This document shows, one piece after another, positions 15,504-39,388 of a stretch of DNA of 39,473 bases. Position 1 is the stretch's first letter; each line of letters begins with the position of its first letter. Under the pieces are notes generated by a model. That model had not been told where the DNA came from. It worked only from the letters and a program-made list of their open reading frames with translations, and searched no databases. Source of the DNA: Nanobdellota archaeon (GTDB taxonomy: Archaea > Nanobdellota > Nanobdellia > Woesearchaeales > GW2011-AR4); NCBI GenBank assembly GCA_038046385.1, contig JBBSWH010000003.1:1-39473 (forward strand), written 5' to 3'. The position numbers and the translations under genes were made by a program.

Positions 15504-16049
15504 ATGAACCTGTTAATAGTCAAGGAAGAGATACTTGGCAGTGCGCATGAGCAGGCAAAGCAGATATTAAGCGATGCCAGAAAAGAAGCAAACAGAATTT
15601 CCAAGGAAGCAGAAAAAAAGCTGGAAGAATTCAGAGAAAAAAGCGATGCAGCTGCGAAAAAGGCAATTGAAACCATAAAGAGGCAGGAGATTGCGGCCGG
15701 AGAGCTTGAGAGCAAGAAAATGCTGCTCGAGACAAAGAAGCAGGCAATAGACGCTGCTTTTGCAGAAGCAAGAAAAAGCATTGAGAGCCTTGATGACAAA
15801 AAAAGAGGGGCAATGCTCAAAAAGCTGCTAGAAAAAACCCAAAAGGAAATAGACATTGCAGCCGTTTACTGCAGCAAGAAGGATGCAAAATTTTTCAGCG
15901 GAATAAATACAATTTCAATGGAAATGACTGGCGGATTCATTGCAGAGAACAAAGAAAAAACGATTAGGGTGGACTGCAGCTTTGACTCGCTGCTTCAGCT
16001 TGTCAGAGACAACGAAATGCAGAACCTGAACAATATGCTTTTTGCATAA
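15504..16049 (+). CDS. atpE: A-type ATP synthase subunit E
   Basis: Coiled coil plus GGFIAEN...IRVDCSF; start set at ATG 15504, just after the atpK stop. Confidence 0.92.
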   Translation: MNLLIVKEEILGSAHEQAKQILSDARKEANRISKEAEKKLEEFREKSDAAAKKAIETIKRQEIAAGELESKKMLLETKKQAIDAAFAEARKSIESLDDKKRGAMLKKLLEKTQKEIDIAAVYCSKKDAKFFSGINTISMEMTGGFIAENKEKTIRVDCSFDSLLQLVRDNEMQNLNNMLFA

Positions 16050-16053
16050 CACT

Positions 16054-17124
16054 ATGCTAAAAACCCAGGAGAAACGGAAACTGAATTTGGGAAGGTATCC
16101 CTACACTTACGTAAGAACGAGTGTAATGAAGTCCCTTCTTTTTAAGAAAGAGGACTATCAAAAAATGCTGAAGATGGGATTTTCGGAGATTGCAAAGCAA
16201 ATGCAGGATTCAAATTACAAAAAAGAAATCAACGAGCTTGCGGCAAATTATTCAGGATCTGACCTTTTGGAGCTTGCATTGAACAGGAGCCTTGCAAATT
16301 CATACAAGAAGCTGCTGAGAATATCCCCGAACTCGCTCGATGTTCTCATAAAAGAATATGTAAAGAGAAAAGATGTAGAGGACATCAAGACAATCATAAG
16401 GGGAAAGCTGACAGGCGCAACAAACACCGAAATAACCAATTCAATAACCGGGGCAGGCATTCTTGAATATTCTTTCCTTATATCTTTGCTGAAAAAAGAT
16501 TCGATAGAAGAGATATTGAAGGCAAACAGAATGGTTGAGCTTTCAGCTTTTAAGGAAGGATTAAAGGAGCTGAAGGAAAAGAACAGCATAGTTGCGATTG
16601 AAAATGTAATGGACAAATATTATTACAGCTCTCTTGCCGAGTTTTCAAAAACACTGCCAAAAGAAGGCCATCTTTTCAGAAATTTCATCCAGAAAGAGGT
16701 TGATGCAATGAACATACTTACCCTTTTCAGGCTGAAGAAAGCAAAATTCAGCAAAGAAAAAATAAAAGCGTTCATGATACCCTCATCAGGAAAAATAAAG
16801 ATGTCAAAGCTTGCAGACCTTGCAAACGTAGAGGATTTCGGAGAGCTTGCAAAGGCTTTTGCAAAAACAGAATACGGCAATGCTGTTTCTGAAGGCATTG
16901 AGGAATACAAAAAGGCAGGCTCGCTGATAAAGCTGGAAACCGGGCTGTACAAGCACGTTTTAAGGCAGTCAATGCTCATGCTGCACCAGCATCCTCTTTC
17001 AGTGGATGTAATTTTGGGATATATGTTTGCAAAAGAAATTGAAACAAGAAATTTAAAAATAATCATAAAAGGAAAGCAGCTGAAATTAAAAGAAGATTTC
17101 ATAGAAAATCAACTGGTGTTTTAA
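16054..17124 (+). CDS. atpC: A-type ATP synthase subunit C
   Basis: YPYTYVR...MKSLL, DIKTIIRGK and KEIETRNLKIIIKGK; start set at ATG 16054. Confidence 0.93.
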   Translation: MLKTQEKRKLNLGRYPYTYVRTSVMKSLLFKKEDYQKMLKMGFSEIAKQMQDSNYKKEINELAANYSGSDLLELALNRSLANSYKKLLRISPNSLDVLIKEYVKRKDVEDIKTIIRGKLTGATNTEITNSITGAGILEYSFLISLLKKDSIEEILKANRMVELSAFKEGLKELKEKNSIVAIENVMDKYYYSSLAEFSKTLPKEGHLFRNFIQKEVDAMNILTLFRLKKAKFSKEKIKAFMIPSSGKIKMSKLADLANVEDFGELAKAFAKTEYGNAVSEGIEEYKKAGSLIKLETGLYKHVLRQSMLMLHQHPLSVDVILGYMFAKEIETRNLKIIIKGKQLKLKEDFIENQLVF

Positions 17125-17125
17125 A

Positions 17126-17257
17126 ATGAGAACGACAAAAAACTTTTCCGTGGCATTGGATGTCGGAAATCAAAGATTTCCGATCACCTCGCGGAACTTT
17201 GTTCCGCAACGAATGCCACTTCATGTCGTCGTAAAGGGGCGAAACCGTTTATGGTGA
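17126..17257 (+). repeat. Branched palindromic cassette between atpC and atpF, spanned by a 43-aa mini-ORF
   Basis: Nested stems ACGACA/TGTCGT, GTGGCATT/AATGCCAC, TCGGAAATC-aaa-GATTTCCGA and GCGGAAC-ttt-GTTCCGC. ATG lies 1 nt after the atpC stop and the TGA overlaps the start of atpF. Confidence 0.7.
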
Positions 17258-17550
17258 ACATAGCAGCAGCAGGGTCAAGCGAATTTGTCGTCGGGTTCAG
17301 GCTAGCCGGAGTGAGGTATATTTTTGAGATGAATGACGATTATTTCAAAAAACTGAAGGAGTTAAGAAGCGACAAGGAGCTGGGAGTAGTTGTCGTCGAG
17401 GAAAAAGTAATGGAATCCTTGGAGCAGCATCAGAGGATTGAGATAGAAAGCTCTGTGGAGCCGGTATTCATAACACTGTCAACAAAAGTCGAACAGGATA
17501 GCCTGAAGAGACTGATAAAAAAATCAATAGGCGTTGACCTATGGAAATAG
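17251..17550 (+). CDS. atpF: A-type ATP synthase subunit F
   Basis: GFRLAGV and IKKSIGVDLW. Confidence 0.95.
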   Translation: MVNIAAAGSSEFVVGFRLAGVRYIFEMNDDYFKKLKELRSDKELGVVVVEEKVMESLEQHQRIEIESSVEPVFITLSTKVEQDSLKRLIKKSIGVDLWK

Positions 17551-26315: not shown

Positions 26316-26440
26316 GCCTTCGTAGCTCAGCGGTAGAGCGTCGCTTTCGTAAGCATGAATTTTTGGTCAAGCTTTTTAGCTTGCCTAAAAAGGTTGTTTG
26401 AAACAAGCGAAGGTCAGGGGTTCAAATCCCTTCGAAGGCT
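26316..26440 (+). tRNA. tRNA-Thr(CGT) with a 53-nt intron at 37/38 (26352-26404)
   Basis: GCCTTCG TA GCTC AGCGGTA GAGC G TCGCT TTCGTA|A AGCGA AGGTC AGGGG TTCAAAT CCCTT CGAAGGC T; central helix TTCG/TGAA with 3-nt bulges. Confidence 0.94.
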
Positions 26441-26722: not shown

Positions 26723-27961
26723 ATGTCACAATTAGAATTAACCATATCACAAACAGAAACAGCGCAAAGAATTTTGCAAACACTTGCTCAAGCTAGTGAA
26801 CCCACTTTAATAATAGTTGAAGGAATAAGTGGCGTTGGCAAAAGTGCAGTTCTTGATTCAGTTAAAAGAGAAATTAAATCTGCTAAAGGAAGGATCTTGG
26901 AAAGCTACGAACTCCAACATTATTGGTTGGATTCAGATGCAATTAGCTTACTTAAATCAAGCAAGCATCTTATAAAAACTTGTACCCCTTATGAATCCGA
27001 ATCTTTGCTTAAAAAATTAGAGGAGCATAGGGGCCACAGACAAATTAGCACAATAATTTTACCAGGCATGGATCTAGGCGAGATTGGTGTGTATTTAGAA
27101 CCAAGAGCTAATCAAGCTCAAATGGATATTAATGAGTTGGCAAATCATTCTTTAGGCGTTCCATTATTGGCTGACATGTTATTAATGAACTCAAGAGACC
27201 CTAAAGATGCAGCAATAATAGCAGGAAATCATCTTTCATGTAACTTTGGCCCAGAATTGACTGGAAAAATTGGAGCTAACATGGCTTACCTTGCTAACTA
27301 CTTGAAAATCCCCCCAACAAAAGATGTTTTGCAAGCTGCTACAAATGGAAACTCTTTTGGAGGAGTTTATCACAGTTTGGACCAGATTTTAGCAAGACAA
27401 TTAGAACTAAGGCAAAGAGGGATGAATGAAGAAAGCCCATTGTTCACTGCACCTGAAAGTGTAAAAATATATGATTCAAAATTAGGACGCTATGATGGAA
27501 GCAATATCCATATTTTTGCACCTATACAAAATGCAGACGATTTAACTAGAGTGCAAGAGGCTTTTGAATTATACAGACAAAATGGCCGTGAAAGGCGATT
27601 TAGAATGTTTGGTGCCATGTGGAGAAAAACCGGGATGGCTTTGACAGAAGGAGATTCTGTACACAGTAATGAAAGTGAATGCCAAGATATAGAAAAAACA
27701 TCCCAAAAATATGAATCTGCGTATAATGGCGGCCAACTACCATTAAAAACTGAAGATTCAAGCGTTGGAAGCTTATTTGTTGAAAGCTGGGATCATGAGG
27801 GTCAAGGATCTCATCCAAAGCGTATTGCATGGATGGTAGAAAGCCTGCTTCAGCAAAGAGGAATATCTTATTTAGTGAATATCCCTCATATTAATGTTGC
27901 ATATAAATTTGATGCAAAAACAAATAGTGTGACTATACTTGAGAAACCTATCAAACTTTGA
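26723..27961 (+). CDS. Orphan P-loop NTPase with STAND-like features
   Basis: IIVEGISGVGKS Walker A, ILPGMDLGEI and SLGVPLLA (GxP motif); Walker B not evident. Confidence 0.6.
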   Translation: MSQLELTISQTETAQRILQTLAQASEPTLIIVEGISGVGKSAVLDSVKREIKSAKGRILESYELQHYWLDSDAISLLKSSKHLIKTCTPYESESLLKKLEEHRGHRQISTIILPGMDLGEIGVYLEPRANQAQMDINELANHSLGVPLLADMLLMNSRDPKDAAIIAGNHLSCNFGPELTGKIGANMAYLANYLKIPPTKDVLQAATNGNSFGGVYHSLDQILARQLELRQRGMNEESPLFTAPESVKIYDSKLGRYDGSNIHIFAPIQNADDLTRVQEAFELYRQNGRERRFRMFGAMWRKTGMALTEGDSVHSNESECQDIEKTSQKYESAYNGGQLPLKTEDSSVGSLFVESWDHEGQGSHPKRIAWMVESLLQQRGISYLVNIPHINVAYKFDAKTNSVTILEKPIKL

Positions 27962-27966
27962 TTATT

Positions 27967-29178
27967 TCACTCATACCTAAGCGCATCCACCGGCCTTAGC
28001 TTCGATGCTCTTCTCGCCGGCAGGAATCCTGCTGCTGCGCCTACGAATAAAGAGAATAGCAAGCATCCGATTATCAAAGACAGAGGAAAAGCCGGCTTCA
28101 GTAAAGCAAATCCGTTTGCTGCTGCGATTGAGCCGCCTGCTGAAGAAATCAAGAATCCGAGAAACACGCCAAGAGCGCCGCCAATCAAGCCAATCAGCCC
28201 GGCTTCTACGACGAAAATCATAAGTATATCATTATTCCTAGCCCCTATAGCTTTCATCACGCCAATCTCCTTTGTTCTTTCAATGATGGAAGTGTACATT
28301 GTGTTCATTATGTTGACAAACGCAACAACCATTGAAATCAAAGCAATCAAGACTAGCATTCCGTTAATCACATTAATCACTGTAGTAAAGGTAGCCAAGG
28401 CGTCTTCAAAAGTCTGAACAAAGAAATCCTCTTTGCCTTTGTCCTGATCCTTGAACTTGCGAAGCTTTTCGCTTATGCTTTTGGAAAGCTCAGGAGGGGT
28501 TGTATCTTTCTGCGAGCTAAGGATTATAAATCCAAACTTATCCTTTGAAGCGGGGTGCAGGATTTCAAAGCCTTCCATTGTGATGTAGACATTTGTGTCG
28601 TCCTGCGGGTTTCCGACTTCCTTGTAAAAACCGATAACCTCGAAAGTTTTGCCGTCTATTGATATCTTGTCCCCAACATGAATTGCATTTTTGAATATCT
28701 TGTCTTCAAACTGGTAATTGTACCCAAGGATGACTTTGTCAAGGTCGCCTTTTTTAAGGCTCCTTCCTTTTATGATTTCAGTTGCGAAAGTTTCCTCGAT
28801 AAAATCAATCTCATCTGTTTCAAGCCCCATGAGGAAAGGGTATTTTTTCTGCTCCTTGAACATAACTTCTCCTGCTCTCATGTACATGCCGGTTATTTTG
28901 TCAACTCCCTTTACTTTTTTTATGAAATCAACATCTTCTTTTGAAAGAAAGAAATTCTCGTCTGTTCCCGGCGCTCCGATTCCTTTTGCCTGCACGAAAA
29001 GCTTATTGCGCCCGGACTGGTCTGCTATAGTATCCACATATCTCTGCATGCCTATTCCGAAGCTGAGGAGGGCAAATATTGCGGTTATTCCTATTAATAT
29101 TGAAAGTATTGTAAGGCCGCTTCTAAGCTTTCTTTTCCTGAAATTCTGCAATGCGTATTTTACCTCGTGTATGTTCAT
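27967..29178 (-). CDS. MacB/FtsX-family ABC permease
   Basis: KLRSGLTILSILIGI, NIMNTMYTSIIERTKEIGVMKAIGA and PARRASKLRPVDALRYE. Confidence 0.95.
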   Translation of the reverse strand: MNIHEVKYALQNFRKRKLRSGLTILSILIGITAIFALLSFGIGMQRYVDTIADQSGRNKLFVQAKGIGAPGTDENFFLSKEDVDFIKKVKGVDKITGMYMRAGEVMFKEQKKYPFLMGLETDEIDFIEETFATEIIKGRSLKKGDLDKVILGYNYQFEDKIFKNAIHVGDKISIDGKTFEVIGFYKEVGNPQDDTNVYITMEGFEILHPASKDKFGFIILSSQKDTTPPELSKSISEKLRKFKDQDKGKEDFFVQTFEDALATFTTVINVINGMLVLIALISMVVAFVNIMNTMYTSIIERTKEIGVMKAIGARNNDILMIFVVEAGLIGLIGGALGVFLGFLISSAGGSIAAANGFALLKPAFPLSLIIGCLLFSLFVGAAAGFLPARRASKLRPVDALRYE

Positions 29179-29349
29179 TTTGAACTAACCTCTTTTGCAT
29201 TATTCTTATTCAAAACCTCGGAAATCCTTGATTTCCGATGGTGACCGAAAATCCCATCGGGATTTATCGGCATGAATGCTACGAACGCCTGACCTGCGAG
29301 TGAGCTCGTGCGAACTCGCTCACTTTTCACTGAGTATGTGTTCATTTTG
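29172..29349 (-). repeat. Multi-hairpin cassette flanked by an 11-bp direct repeat and spanned by a 56-aa mini-ORF (29175-29345)
   Basis: CAAAATGAACA (minus strand) at both ends; hairpins TCGGAAATC-ctt-GATTTCCGA, AAATCCC-atc-GGGATTT and AGTGAGC..GCTCACT; ATGA overlaps at both ends. Confidence 0.75.
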
Positions 29350-30568
29350 CAGCCCTCAATGATTCAACTGGGCTCATCTTGGATGCCTGGTATGCAGGCA
29401 AGACTCCAAATGCTGTCCCAAGTATGAACGAAAAAAACAAAGCCCCAATTATTAATGTCAAACTGACGCTTGCCTGTATCAAATCAGAGCCAAGTGCGAT
29501 TCTTCCAATAAATGATATGCCGTATGCCAAAGTCATTCCCAGCGCTATCCCTATCACCCCTCCGACCATTCCAAGCAATCCGGACTCAAAAAAGAATATC
29601 GTGAATATTGCCGAATCTCTAGCTCCAATAGATTTCATTATTCCTATTTCTTTTGTTCTTTCAAGCACGGAAGTGTACATTGTGTTCATTATTCCTATGC
29701 CGCCAACTGCAAGAGAAATTCCAGCTATGATATAAATAAATAATTGCACTGCAAAAAGAGTTGAATTCAGAGTTTCAAGGATCTGCTGCGGGCTGTCAAC
29801 CTGAAAATCTTCCTCGCCTTTGTCAACATTCCTTTCTTTTCTCAAAAGCTTTTCAACATTTTCTTTTACATTTGTAACTTCATTCTGATCCTTGACTTTT
29901 ACCGCTATTATGTCTACTTTTTCTTTGTCGGCTCCCAAAACATCAATAAGAACATCTTCATTTATCAGAAACACGCTGTCAAAGATGAAGCTGCCTTTTT
30001 TTTCCATTATGCCGACAACTTCAAAAGGTATTTTTTTAATTAGAATCTTATCCCCCACTTTTATCCTTTTTCCAAATTCATCTTCTTTTGTGTAATCGTT
30101 TCCAATCAGAACTTTTTTTCCGTCTCCTTCTTTCAAAAGGCGCCCTTCTGCGGCCTTTATGTTGACCATTTTCTCAAAAATCTTACGATTTTCTCCATGA
30201 GGGACAGAAGCAGTAAACCCAATATCCTGCTGTTCATTGAACTCTATCGGTGCAGATTCTATATACCTGTTAAAAGCAGCTTCAACACCATTAATTCCTT
30301 TTATTTTGTCTGCAAGGTCTTTGTTTAAAGGATTTGCAACAGCAGTTCCGGGAGGGCCTGCGAATGCAATGCCGGAAGCCTGCACGCTTAAAATATCAGG
30401 GCCGAGAAAACCAAACTGGGAAGTTATTGCTAATCGCAAGCCTTCTCCAAGGCCTATCAAAGAGATCACTGCAGCAATCCCTATGAAGATGCCAATCATG
30501 GTGAGCCATGACCTTAACTTCCTGCTTTTCAGGCTTTTCAGCGAAAATGCTGCGTAATCCTTTAGCAT
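29342..30568 (-). CDS. MacB/FtsX-family ABC permease
   Basis: KLRSWLTMIGIFIGI and GIMNTMYTSVLERTKEIG; start set at ATG 30568, 1 nt after the upstream stop. Confidence 0.95.
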   Translation of the reverse strand: MLKDYAAFSLKSLKSRKLRSWLTMIGIFIGIAAVISLIGLGEGLRLAITSQFGFLGPDILSVQASGIAFAGPPGTAVANPLNKDLADKIKGINGVEAAFNRYIESAPIEFNEQQDIGFTASVPHGENRKIFEKMVNIKAAEGRLLKEGDGKKVLIGNDYTKEDEFGKRIKVGDKILIKKIPFEVVGIMEKKGSFIFDSVFLINEDVLIDVLGADKEKVDIIAVKVKDQNEVTNVKENVEKLLRKERNVDKGEEDFQVDSPQQILETLNSTLFAVQLFIYIIAGISLAVGGIGIMNTMYTSVLERTKEIGIMKSIGARDSAIFTIFFFESGLLGMVGGVIGIALGMTLAYGISFIGRIALGSDLIQASVSLTLIIGALFFSFILGTAFGVLPAYQASKMSPVESLRAAK

Positions 30569-30569
30569 T

Positions 30570-31814
30570 TTACTTTCTTTTTTTCTTCCAGAACCTGTAG
30601 CCGAAGAAGGCAACTACAGCAATAACTAAGATGAAAAACCAATAAGAGTTTCCTTTGCCGGCAACAAGCCCTAATTTTTTTGCCTCAGATGAAGTGTATA
30701 ATGGCAATGAAAGGCTTATGTCTTTTTTGTAATTCTTGTTGTTTGCATCCTTGTATTCTATTGTCAAAGGAATTGCAACGCTTTTATCAGATGTCTTTTC
30801 CATGTAAAGCTTGAAATCAGCTGTTTCATAGTCATCAGAGTCTATGTTGCCTATGTAGATTTCAGAAGGAGACAATGTTTTGTATTTGTCGCTGCTTAAT
30901 AATTTTAAGTTGACAAACTTCATATCCGGCAATCCGCGGTTGACTATTTTTACTGTGATGTCTCCGGCAGTCCCAGCTGTGTATATTGTTGTGCTGTCAA
31001 CACTGACTGAAACCTCCGGCTCACCGCCAACAACCATGGTAACGACGTTGGATTTGGAATAGTTTTTGTTTAACAAGTCAGAATACCTTAGCATCAAAGG
31101 AACTTTGTAAGATTTTGATGATGCATCAGGATCAACCAACAAATCAAAATCAACAGAAGTTGTTGCCTGTCCATCAATAAATGAGATGACTTTTTCATTT
31201 ACAGAGCCAAGAGGCGAAAAAGGAGTTGCAAGATTGTTGCTTGTTCCCAATTCAAGACTAACTCTTACATCTTTCAATGCAGATGTCGCATAATTTTTTA
31301 ATGTTATCGAAAGCTTTGCCTTTGCTCCAGGAGCTACAACAGCAGGGTCGGATGAGAATTTGTCCACTGCAAGTATTGCGTCATGTGACTGCACATTTAC
31401 GCTAAGGTCGTTCACTACAGAAAGCAATTGACTATCTCCATATTTGAACCCTGCCTTCAATTCGTAATTGCCGTCAGAAGCGCTTTGGTCTACAAGAAGC
31501 TTGTACTTCAAAACAACACTTTGGTCTGCATTGTTAGTATTTCCGAGAACCCCTATTTTTCTTTCAGCAACCTCTCCAGGCACAAGTGAGAATGGATACT
31601 CTGGCACGATGCTAAAGACTACATTCTGGGCAATATCCCCTTCATTGTCTATCTTAAAATTGACTTCAAACTGCTTGCCCGGCTCAACCGGATCAGGATC
31701 CTGATTGTTTATGCTTACCTGTATGCTTGGAGATTTTACATTATACTGCGCGTACGCAACACCTGAAATCAATACCATCAAAACCATAACTGCAATAAAA
31801 ATTTTGTTTTTCAT
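30570..31814 (-). CDS. COG1361-like (S-layer/CARDB Ig-fold) membrane-anchored protein of the ABC operon
   Basis: Signal peptide, QDPDPVEPG...F.I.N.G, repeated beta-sandwich motifs (YIGNIDSDD), C-terminal TM and basic tail; GAGGTGA SD. Confidence 0.85.
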   Translation of the reverse strand: MKNKIFIAVMVLMVLISGVAYAQYNVKSPSIQVSINNQDPDPVEPGKQFEVNFKIDNEGDIAQNVVFSIVPEYPFSLVPGEVAERKIGVLGNTNNADQSVVLKYKLLVDQSASDGNYELKAGFKYGDSQLLSVVNDLSVNVQSHDAILAVDKFSSDPAVVAPGAKAKLSITLKNYATSALKDVRVSLELGTSNNLATPFSPLGSVNEKVISFIDGQATTSVDFDLLVDPDASSKSYKVPLMLRYSDLLNKNYSKSNVVTMVVGGEPEVSVSVDSTTIYTAGTAGDITVKIVNRGLPDMKFVNLKLLSSDKYKTLSPSEIYIGNIDSDDYETADFKLYMEKTSDKSVAIPLTIEYKDANNKNYKKDISLSLPLYTSSEAKKLGLVAGKGNSYWFFILVIAVVAFFGYRFWKKKRK

Positions 31815-31901: not shown

Positions 31902-32597
31902 TTATCTGTTTCTGTGCGATTTTATTACTTTTCCGTCTTTCAAAAATTCTGTTCTTTCTGCAACTCTTGAAAGATTTACATCATGAGTAACCATCACGAT
32001 TGTTTTTTTCTCGTCTCTGTGCAGCTTTTCAAGGAAATCAAGCACATTTGCCCCTGTTTTGCTGTCAAGGTTTCCTGTCGGCTCGTCAGCCAGGATGACT
32101 TCAGGATTATTTGCAAGGCTTCTTGCAATAGCAACCCTTTGCTGCTGCCCTCCTGAAAGCTCAGATGGGCGATGGTGCATTCTTTCCTTTAATTCCACAA
32201 GATTAAGAAGCTCTGAAGCTTTTTTCTTTCTTAAATCTTCCGGAATTCCCTGGAAAATCATCGGCAGCATAACATTTTCTGCCGCTGTTAATGTGGGTAC
32301 AAGATTGAACTGCTGGAAAATAAACCCTATCTTCTTTCCCCTTATCTGCGCCAAATCAGATTCAGACAGCATGGAAATATCATGGTCTTCAAGCATTACC
32401 CTTCCTTTTGTAGGCACATCCAAGCAGCCAATCATGTTGACTGCAGTTGATTTTCCTGAGCCTGAAGGGCCCATTATGGCAACAAATTCGCCTTCTTTTA
32501 TGTCTAAATTAAGGCCCTGGAGCGCGTTGACCTCAACATCGCCCATTTTGTAAGTTTTCCAGACGTTTTCCAGCTTTATTATTGACTTTTTCATCAT
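31902..32597 (-). CDS. LolD/MacB-type ABC ATPase
   Basis: GPSGSGKS, GFIFQQFNL, LSGGQQQRVAIAR, ADEPTGNLD and MVTHD. Confidence 0.97.
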   Translation of the reverse strand: MMKKSIIKLENVWKTYKMGDVEVNALQGLNLDIKEGEFVAIMGPSGSGKSTAVNMIGCLDVPTKGRVMLEDHDISMLSESDLAQIRGKKIGFIFQQFNLVPTLTAAENVMLPMIFQGIPEDLRKKKASELLNLVELKERMHHRPSELSGGQQQRVAIARSLANNPEVILADEPTGNLDSKTGANVLDFLEKLHRDEKKTIVMVTHDVNLSRVAERTEFLKDGKVIKSHRNR

Positions 32598-39259: not shown

Positions 39260-39388
39260 GGGTCAGTAGCTCAGCTTGGATAGAGCGACAGACATCATGT
39301 GTCGAACCTTCTATCTTTGCTGGCAGTAAGCTGAGAAGCCTTTAAAGCTTCGCTTAATAGGTCGGGGGTTCGAATCCTCCCTGACCCG
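39260..39388 (+). tRNA. tRNA-Arg(TCT) with three introns: 30/31 (39292-39306), 37/38 (39314-39328), 42/43 (39334-39357)
   Basis: Splicing gives GGGTCAG TA GCTC AGCTTGGATA GAGC G ACAGC CTTCTAA GCTGT AGGTC GGGGG TTCGAAT CCTCC CTGACCC G with a perfect ACAGC/GCTGT stem. TTTATAAA upstream, T-tract downstream. Confidence 0.92.

Follow-up and report, generated by a model that had tools for sequence, protein, structure and literature searches.

What becomes of a stop/start overlap between two operon genes when a hairpin-rich piece of DNA is inserted into it, and how could the downstream gene still be reached by ribosomes? This question is raised by a gene junction in contig JBBSWH010000003.1 of a groundwater Nanobdellota archaeon. 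The window, that is the whole stretch of DNA analysed, comprises 39,473 nt, and all coordinates given without a contig are window positions. On its minus strand a four-gene ATP-binding cassette (ABC) transporter cluster houses the junction, at which two tandem permease genes are separated by 156 bases lying between two copies of an 11-base repeat. An open reading frame (ORF) of 56 codons spans this insert.

Structure of the permease junction

The features of the junction are as follows, in the order of transcription, with the remaining annotated genes of the cluster at the end.

29342..30568, minus strand: permease 1, the upstream gene (MacB_PCD and FtsX; from the ORF list, Pfam and the relatives' junction sequences)
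29339..29349, minus strand: 11-base repeat, copy 1, with the permease 1 stop and the ATG that opens the small ORF (ATGA at 29342-29345)
29183..29338, minus strand: insert of 156 bases between the two repeat copies
29175..29345, minus strand: bridging ORF of 56 codons, from ATGA to ATGA (ORF list)
29188..29192, minus strand: Shine-Dalgarno-like (SD-like) GAGGT, 9 bases ahead of the permease 2 ATG
29172..29182, minus strand: 11-base repeat, copy 2, with the stop of the small ORF and the permease 2 start (ATGA at 29175-29178)
27967..29178, minus strand: permease 2, the downstream gene (MacB_PCD and FtsX; ORF list, Pfam)
31902..32597, minus strand: ABC ATPase, first gene of the cluster in transcription order
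30570..31814, minus strand: CARDB-like secreted protein, second gene of the cluster

The permease 1 ORF spans 29342..30613 with a probable ATG at 30568, and its stop is the TGA at 29342-29344. The 11-mer CAAAATGAACA forms an exact direct repeat, 29339-29349 and 29172-29182, with a spacing of 167 bases, and each copy contains an ATGA. The 56-codon ORF starts at the first ATG, inside the permease 1 stop, and ends with the TGA inside the second ATGA. Both of its ends form a -4 overlap on the strand of the operon. Only this frame is open across the stretch, the two alternative frames holding 4 and 5 stops. The ORF list and a frame check thus agree with a sequence-only reading of the window, from which this analysis started and which had described a 56-residue frame running from ATGA to ATGA.

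Two SD-like motifs accompany the two ATGA sites. An SD-like GAGGG lies within the last codons of permease 1, 7 bases ahead of the first ATG, and the GAGGT listed above precedes the start of permease 2. SD-like 5-mers are found ahead of 13.5% of 1012 long-ORF starts in the genome to which the window belongs (the host genome) compared with a background of 2.7%, a five-fold enrichment. GAGGT-to-start spacings in this genome peak at 6 and 9 bases, and the spacing of 9 is seen at 10 other starts preceded by GAGGT. Repeat copy 2, together with its 3 preceding bases, could form a 5-bp hairpin over the permease 2 start codon.

Empty sites in related genomes

To reconstruct the ancestral junction, the orthologous permease pair was taken from 19 related loci or genomes, with both genes placed by tblastn. 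Eighteen of these loci were ordered; L023 was dropped for its reverse gene order. The genes meet in a -4 ATGA overlap at 11 of the 18 junctions, are 1 base apart at 3 and 7-10 bases apart at 2, and are separated by A/T-rich gaps of 63-86 bases at the last 2. All seven same-genus orthologues (L010-L015 and L027, 63-76% identity for permease 2) show the plain ATGA overlap without an insert, and their junctions read ...GCAAA/GCGAA-ATGA... The 156-base insert is absent from all 18 ordered loci. Adding 156 bases and another copy of the 11-mer to the relatives' empty site gives the junction of the window. Ahead of the ancestral ATGA, an SD-like AGG(A/G)G is conserved in the relatives; it is retained ahead of the first ATG in the window.

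Contigs belonging to runs of two other studies contain an identical insert. None of the contigs from four DNA runs skips it; contigs drop rare variants, so that an empty allele could have escaped this search.

Since the relatives, including all same-genus orthologues, keep the plain ATGA overlap, we regard the insert as specific to this lineage. Its sequence context argues strongly for an insertion with a target-site-type duplication of the 11 bases of the stop/start overlap, and we hold this part of our interpretation with high confidence. The sequence-only reading had made the same proposal and had suggested that removal of one repeat copy together with the insert would restore a simple ATGA junction. 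Both points were borne out: the 11-mer is present in both copies and matches the empty site, which the same-genus orthologues carry in exactly this restored form. As the 11 target bases were duplicated, permease 1 kept its stop and permease 2 its start.

Composition of the insert

The insert is a non-coding composite of two hairpin modules.

29293..29331, minus strand: core hairpin of 39 bases, one base shorter than the variant repeated across the genus
29217..29274, minus strand: twin hairpin, two stem-loops built on CGRWAAATC words

The 39-base unit size of the core was derived from in-frame gaps in two related loci (L120 and L128, see below). Compared with shuffled sequences the insert is strongly folded (z-scores of -3.9 for the minus and -4.4 for the plus strand), and three stable hairpins are predicted.

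Both modules are mobile in Woesearchaeota/Nanoarchaeota or, at the least, dispersed widely there. Part of the insert, mostly its positions 3-55, matches 38 of the 42 other genomes of the genus, at up to 20 places per genome. An exact-pattern scan of a collection of species-representative genomes located the core in 81 stretches, which belong to metagenome-assembled genomes (MAGs) titled Woesearchaeota, Nanoarchaeota or Nanoarchaeia, or to bins titled 'uncultured Methanosarcinales' or 'uncultured archaeon'; viral contigs gave no match to the core. A degenerate pattern for the twin hairpin matched 73 metagenome stretches, and copies of this module elsewhere carry compensatory changes in their stems.

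The complete 156-base insert, on the other hand, is present as a single copy in the host genome (1.28 Mb, 85% complete). No relative of the whole insert was found in the genus, where the longest match covers approximately 61 bases, and a 20-mer taken from it had no match in the metagenomes. A comparison with Rfam yielded no family at the gathering threshold or at E-values up to 10, apart from two weak matches without meaning.

In the metagenome stretches (L194-L266) the twin hairpin takes the form of a conserved pair of palindromes of about 30 bases with a common central CATG. Such pairs often have core-like units next to them and a small TTCG-loop hairpin before them, and often form the tip of another hairpin. 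Near gene starts of several loci (e.g. L158, L161, L031 and L072) a word TTT(T/C)CGACATAT is seen repeatedly, with A-rich sequence behind it, and this word resembles half of the twin-hairpin arms; as a speculation, it may be a promoter-like motif.

The core hairpin in other settings

In its various locations the core caps hairpins, whose flanking stems vary from copy to copy yet remain complementary. A check of this position at the hairpin tip gave a median of 16 enclosing base pairs compared with 11 when the 3' flank was shuffled, which is a weak control.

The core is also part of inserts in the T-loops of tRNA genes in relatives, where it is bounded by strong bulge-helix-bulge (BHB) motifs. 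Excision of the T-loop insert by a script yielded a tRNA recognized by ARAGORN across the joint in 4 of the 8 loci tried, namely tRNA-His (L041), tRNA-Asp (L046 and L123) and tRNA-Ser (L087), with outer helices of 5 bp. The T-loop inserts of these four loci measure 94-144 bases, and several of the genes contain a second intron.

In L102, a record titled Woesearchaeota MAG, a 16S rRNA helix near position 195 of the archaeal model has the core (~388-437), antisense to the rRNA, in place of its tip. This copy may represent an expansion segment, or else an insert that is excised.

Within protein genes the core occurs in frame. In L120 and L128 it corresponds to an exact, stop-free gap of 13 codons relative to orthologues in the host genome (contig C17 ~26790-27380 and contig C6 ~125990-126280); the genes concerned are a YjeF_C-like gene and a gene for a small conserved protein. 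In-frame read-through of the core is also seen in L092 (ThiF) and L114 (HhH-GPD). From the exact 13-codon gaps we conclude that hairpins of this kind are tolerated by translating ribosomes. The codons flanking the core in L120 now form an inverted repeat of 17 bp.

No gene broken by the core was seen in 40 cases in which it lies between two ORFs. Where these ORFs have a Pfam match, the left frames mostly end at the end of the profile and the right frames mostly begin at its start, with exceptions for NFACT (L058 and L088), Fic (L105) and Glycogen_syn (L055). The modules are found in both orientations and in unrelated contexts. On this distribution the core appears to behave as a small selfish hairpin DNA.

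Two of the same-genus loci from the junction comparison, L010 (G016) and L013 (G006), contain an element of approximately 190 bases before permease 1, at the place where the window reads TAA-A-ATG. The core is flipped between these two orthologous elements. In L010 the stop region of the upstream gene is tandemly duplicated at this junction.

Further inserts at start codons of the host genome

A second junction insert was observed in the window between two V-ATPase-type genes.

16042..17124, plus strand: V-ATPase-type gene flanking the second insert
17251..17550, plus strand: V-ATPase-type gene flanking the second insert

This insert comprises approximately 122 structured bases (17125-17257, plus strand; about 17129-17250) and holds a hairpin at 17163-17183 that is related to the twin-hairpin unit of the permease junction. 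The aligned gene ends are at most 9 bases apart in 13 of 23 relatives. A frame of 43 codons starts with an ATG one base past the upstream stop and ends with a TGA that overlaps the downstream ATG; it was open in 2035 of 5000 shuffles.

Two more cases lie on other contigs. An insert of about 73 bases at rpl37e (contig C1 ~79040-79135, plus strand; L163) is flanked by a 19-base direct repeat that takes in the start codon, and from the upstream copy a frame of 31 codons runs to an ATGA on the real start. A 57-base insert resembling it (contig C10 38411-38500, minus strand) is flanked by a 30-base repeat containing the start codon; its upstream frame stops 6 bases ahead of the real ATG.

These inserts were accompanied by two scans. 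A scan for flanking repeats of at least 10 bases whose copy 1 contains a stop and copy 2 a start gave 8 matches, among which the permease locus was the only junction insert. A genome-wide scan for duplicated start codons returned 184 matches, mostly chance 9-12-mers in A-rich starts, and provides no usable denominator. Five of the 184 were inspected: one was a real further insert (the one on C10), and the remaining four resemble small genes or normal coding sequence.

Proposed mechanism

Based on the empty sites and the layout of the junction we propose the following course of events. A hairpin-rich piece of 156 bases inserted into the ATGA overlap of the tandem ABC-permease genes and duplicated 11 target bases, a step that the empty sites show. 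The ancestral restart context, an SD-like GAGGG followed by ATGA, survived upstream of the insert. Since this context is kept, ribosomes ending permease 1 should restart at the first ATGA, which would now place them on a 56-codon junk frame. This frame would lead them to the second ATGA, located behind GAGGT at a spacing of 9 bases, where they could restart on permease 2.

Translation across the insert matters for the coupling of the two genes. In Haloferax volcanii and E. coli, termination-reinitiation is nearly lost once about 20 bases lie between the genes (PMC10666635). For this reason the gap of 163 bases would be expected to uncouple the permeases unless it is translated across. The frames at the V-ATPase-type junction and at rpl37e also end on or just before the real start, and we count them in favor of the relay.

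Taken as the whole explanation, an insertion with a ribosome relay is the account that we favor, by a narrow measure. The relay step as such, a passage of ribosomes through the 56-codon frame in the manner proposed for mycobacteria's interspersed repetitive units (MIRUs), we put forward tentatively, as its steps are predicted from the analysis of the sequence. It is best read as what selection among insertions, or later mutations, left over, and not as a design of the repeat family. In our reading, the relay would act as a filter on which overlap insertions survive and would not be a property of the repeat.

Several observations weigh against this proposal. Dinucleotide shuffling of the insert left the bridging frame open in 582 of 5000 trials (11.6%), and together with the right phase (1 in 3) the chance expectation is ~3.9%, about 1 in 25, for a case that had been picked in the sequence-only reading because its frame was open. 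Modules between two same-strand frames show no preference for bridging: among 65 such locus/direction cases 1 bridging frame was found compared with 1.66 expected, in a crude count with the flanking frames chosen by length only and both strands tried. At most of these junctions the upstream stop comes without a start codon. None of the eight relatives with spacers of at least 15 bases at the V-ATPase-type junction has a bridging frame. A dedicated junction system, as whose clearest example the permease locus had been presented, is not supported by these counts. The spacing of GAGGT to the permease 2 start is a usual one in the host genome, so that this motif could start the gene alone. The target duplications of the four events in the genome vary from ~3 to 30 bases, and the insert lacks terminal inverted repeats, none of the 5 inverted pairs in 29000-29500 being located at its ends. 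No enzyme was found that would account for the insertion. Finally, we know of no test of termination-reinitiation in DPANN archaea.

Alternative explanations

The same insertion could have left a bridging frame that is merely incidental. In that case permease 2 would be started independently, from the GAGGT motif or from a transcript beginning in the A/T-rich tail of the insert, and the coupling would be lost. The position of GAGGT, shared with 10 other starts, and the five-fold enrichment of SD-like words in the host genome fit such a start, and uncoupled spacers are evidently tolerated in relatives, namely the 63-86-base gaps in 2 of the 18 loci and the eight unbridged spacers at the V-ATPase-type junction. 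The missing excess of bridging frames in the module family points in the same direction. If the ancestral pair was coupled, however, restart on the small ORF is hard to avoid, because the first ATGA and its conserved SD-like context are intact. Moreover, the bridging frame is the sole open one of three, and its phase is the one, out of three possible, that leads into the second ATGA, and a like outcome is seen at two further start-duplicating inserts of the same genome. We therefore consider an incidental frame possible, though rather unlikely.

As folded RNA, the insert might process, stabilize or attenuate the transcript and thereby set different levels of the two permeases, as described for REP/BIME and Correia elements in bacterial operons. 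Its three stable hairpins with z-scores of -3.9/-4.4, the compensatory changes in module copies, and a precedent in miniature transposable elements with inverted repeats (MITEs) that are cut by RNases, reported in PMC10969869, would be compatible with it. A tuned regulator is improbable, though, for an element that is confined to this lineage, is dispensed with in all 18 ordered relatives and has no Rfam family; the occurrence of the modules in both orientations and in unrelated contexts fits selfish DNA better.

The sequence-only reading had offered splicing as a weaker alternative, in which the insert would be a BHB intron cut from the operon mRNA by the tRNA splicing endonuclease. The motif it had drawn is indeed present, with a 4-bp central helix (GAAC/GTTC) and 3-base bulges. 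It would cut the 178-base stretch behind positions 12 and 170, and the product, as derived by hand from the cut positions, would retain the downstream frame plus three extra codons. The core hairpin also occurs inside genuine T-loop introns of relatives, and the tRNAs of the window carry introns. The motif is nevertheless no better than expected by chance: its flanking helices have 2 bp each, compared with outer helices of 5 bp in the true T-loop introns, and an equal or better candidate was obtained in 25.7% of 1000 shuffles of the zone. It would excise 158 bases, and no BHB candidate excises the 167 bases needed to restore the ancestral junction. The exact 13-codon, stop-free gaps formed by the core in protein genes fit read-through and would not be required of a spliced element. 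All this makes an mRNA intron highly improbable. Two tRNA genes with long introns lie at 26316-26440 and 39260-39388 on the plus strand; they were found by Rfam and missed by ARAGORN, which reported no tRNA in the window.

Least credible of all is a real small protein encoded by the 56-codon ORF. Its open frame, its ATG and the SD-like motif upstream are what such a gene would have. The ORF is absent from every relative, however, has no Pfam match, and owes its sequence to repeat hairpins found elsewhere in either orientation and in RNA genes. We read it as a by-product frame.

Route of insertion

The preferred account, insertion with a ribosome relay, leaves the entry of the DNA to be considered. 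The host genome, at its 85% completeness, yielded no transposases of the TnpB-type or DDE_Tnp_1 families. One isolated Y1 (HUH) transposase-like gene, 159 codons long, is present (contig C10 41904-42236, plus strand; L164); no TnpB-type partner, no adjoining hairpin repeats and no link to the core were found for it. Y1_Tnp occurs in 23 of 43 genomes compared with 39 of 43 for the core, and none of 30 Y1 loci contains the core. Neither inverted ends nor a partner enzyme came to light for the insert, and the length of the duplication varies between the events.

A broader conjecture would be that small hairpin repeats of DPANN archaea enter densely packed genomes by an unfamiliar route that copies ~3-30 target bases including the start codon, and that only relay-forming inserts persist at stop/start overlaps. 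We consider this unlikely as it stands. If true, it would provide an archaeal counterpart of the MIRUs and a natural test bed for termination-reinitiation chained through a junk ORF, and it would suggest that A-rich start contexts are the target of a novel way of insertion unlike that of transposases.

Comparison with known systems

The ancestral junction resembles known termination-reinitiation pairs. A -4 overlap with an SD-like motif couples translation in Haloferax and E. coli (PMC6728339, PMC10666635), and the relatives show the same combination of an ATGA overlap and an SD-like motif in the end of the upstream gene. The difference is that the overlap is present twice here, with a 56-codon frame in between, and that the coupling is predicted from the sequence. 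With regard to non-canonical tRNA introns with BHB motifs, the core is common to the T-loop inserts of relatives, whereas the permease junction has no convincing motif.

In size and structure the insert is reminiscent of several bacterial repeats. Repetitive extragenic palindromic (REP) sequences, bacterial interspersed mosaic elements (BIMEs), REPINs and Correia MITEs are described in PMC10969869 as short hairpin repeats without a transposase that usually lie between genes, are frequently nested, and are transcribed along with operons; our insert is likewise short, hairpin-forming and without a transposase. It differs from REP sequences and their RAYT partners in that the core is unlinked to Y1 (HUH) transposase genes, and from MITEs and REP sequences in the variable length of the duplication. 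One of the defining features of MITEs, a target-site duplication, is present, whereas terminal inverted repeats and many copies of the whole element are not. A census of MITEs lists one Woesearchaea genome with 105 MITEs per Mb (PMC11602168). Rickettsia palindromic elements are small palindromes that sit within protein genes without shifting the frame and are translated (PMC10969869). The exact 13-codon gaps formed by the 39-base core in genes of two relatives are similar in this respect; the copy at the permease junction, in contrast, lies between genes, and the organisms are unrelated and have no common sequence.

A description of these archaeal hairpin repeats was not found in the literature searched. 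The junction is tied to a large, seemingly undescribed repeat population that reaches tRNA introns, 16S rRNA and protein genes of Woesearchaeota. If the relay is true, it would show how a spacer-poor genome absorbs selfish insertions without breaking the stoichiometry of an operon, and that in archaea a disposable frame can link successive hand-overs of ribosomes at ATGA overlaps. Since the ancestral junction is known from relatives, the locus offers a clean natural construct for reporter tests.

The closest parallel is provided by the MIRUs. These short repeats insert at start codons in operons in such a way that their inner ORF is coupled, at a spacing of -4, to the gene that they interrupt, an arrangement assumed in the review PMC12548453 to minimize the effect on expression. 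The permease junction shares with them the insert on a stop/start overlap within an operon and the ATGA at both ends of a junk frame. It differs in its archaeal host and has no sequence relation to them. In addition, the insert is a single-copy composite and not a unit of tandem repeats, and its modules follow no orientation rule and have no general relay frame. With these differences, the junction adds an archaeal case to the MIRU idea.

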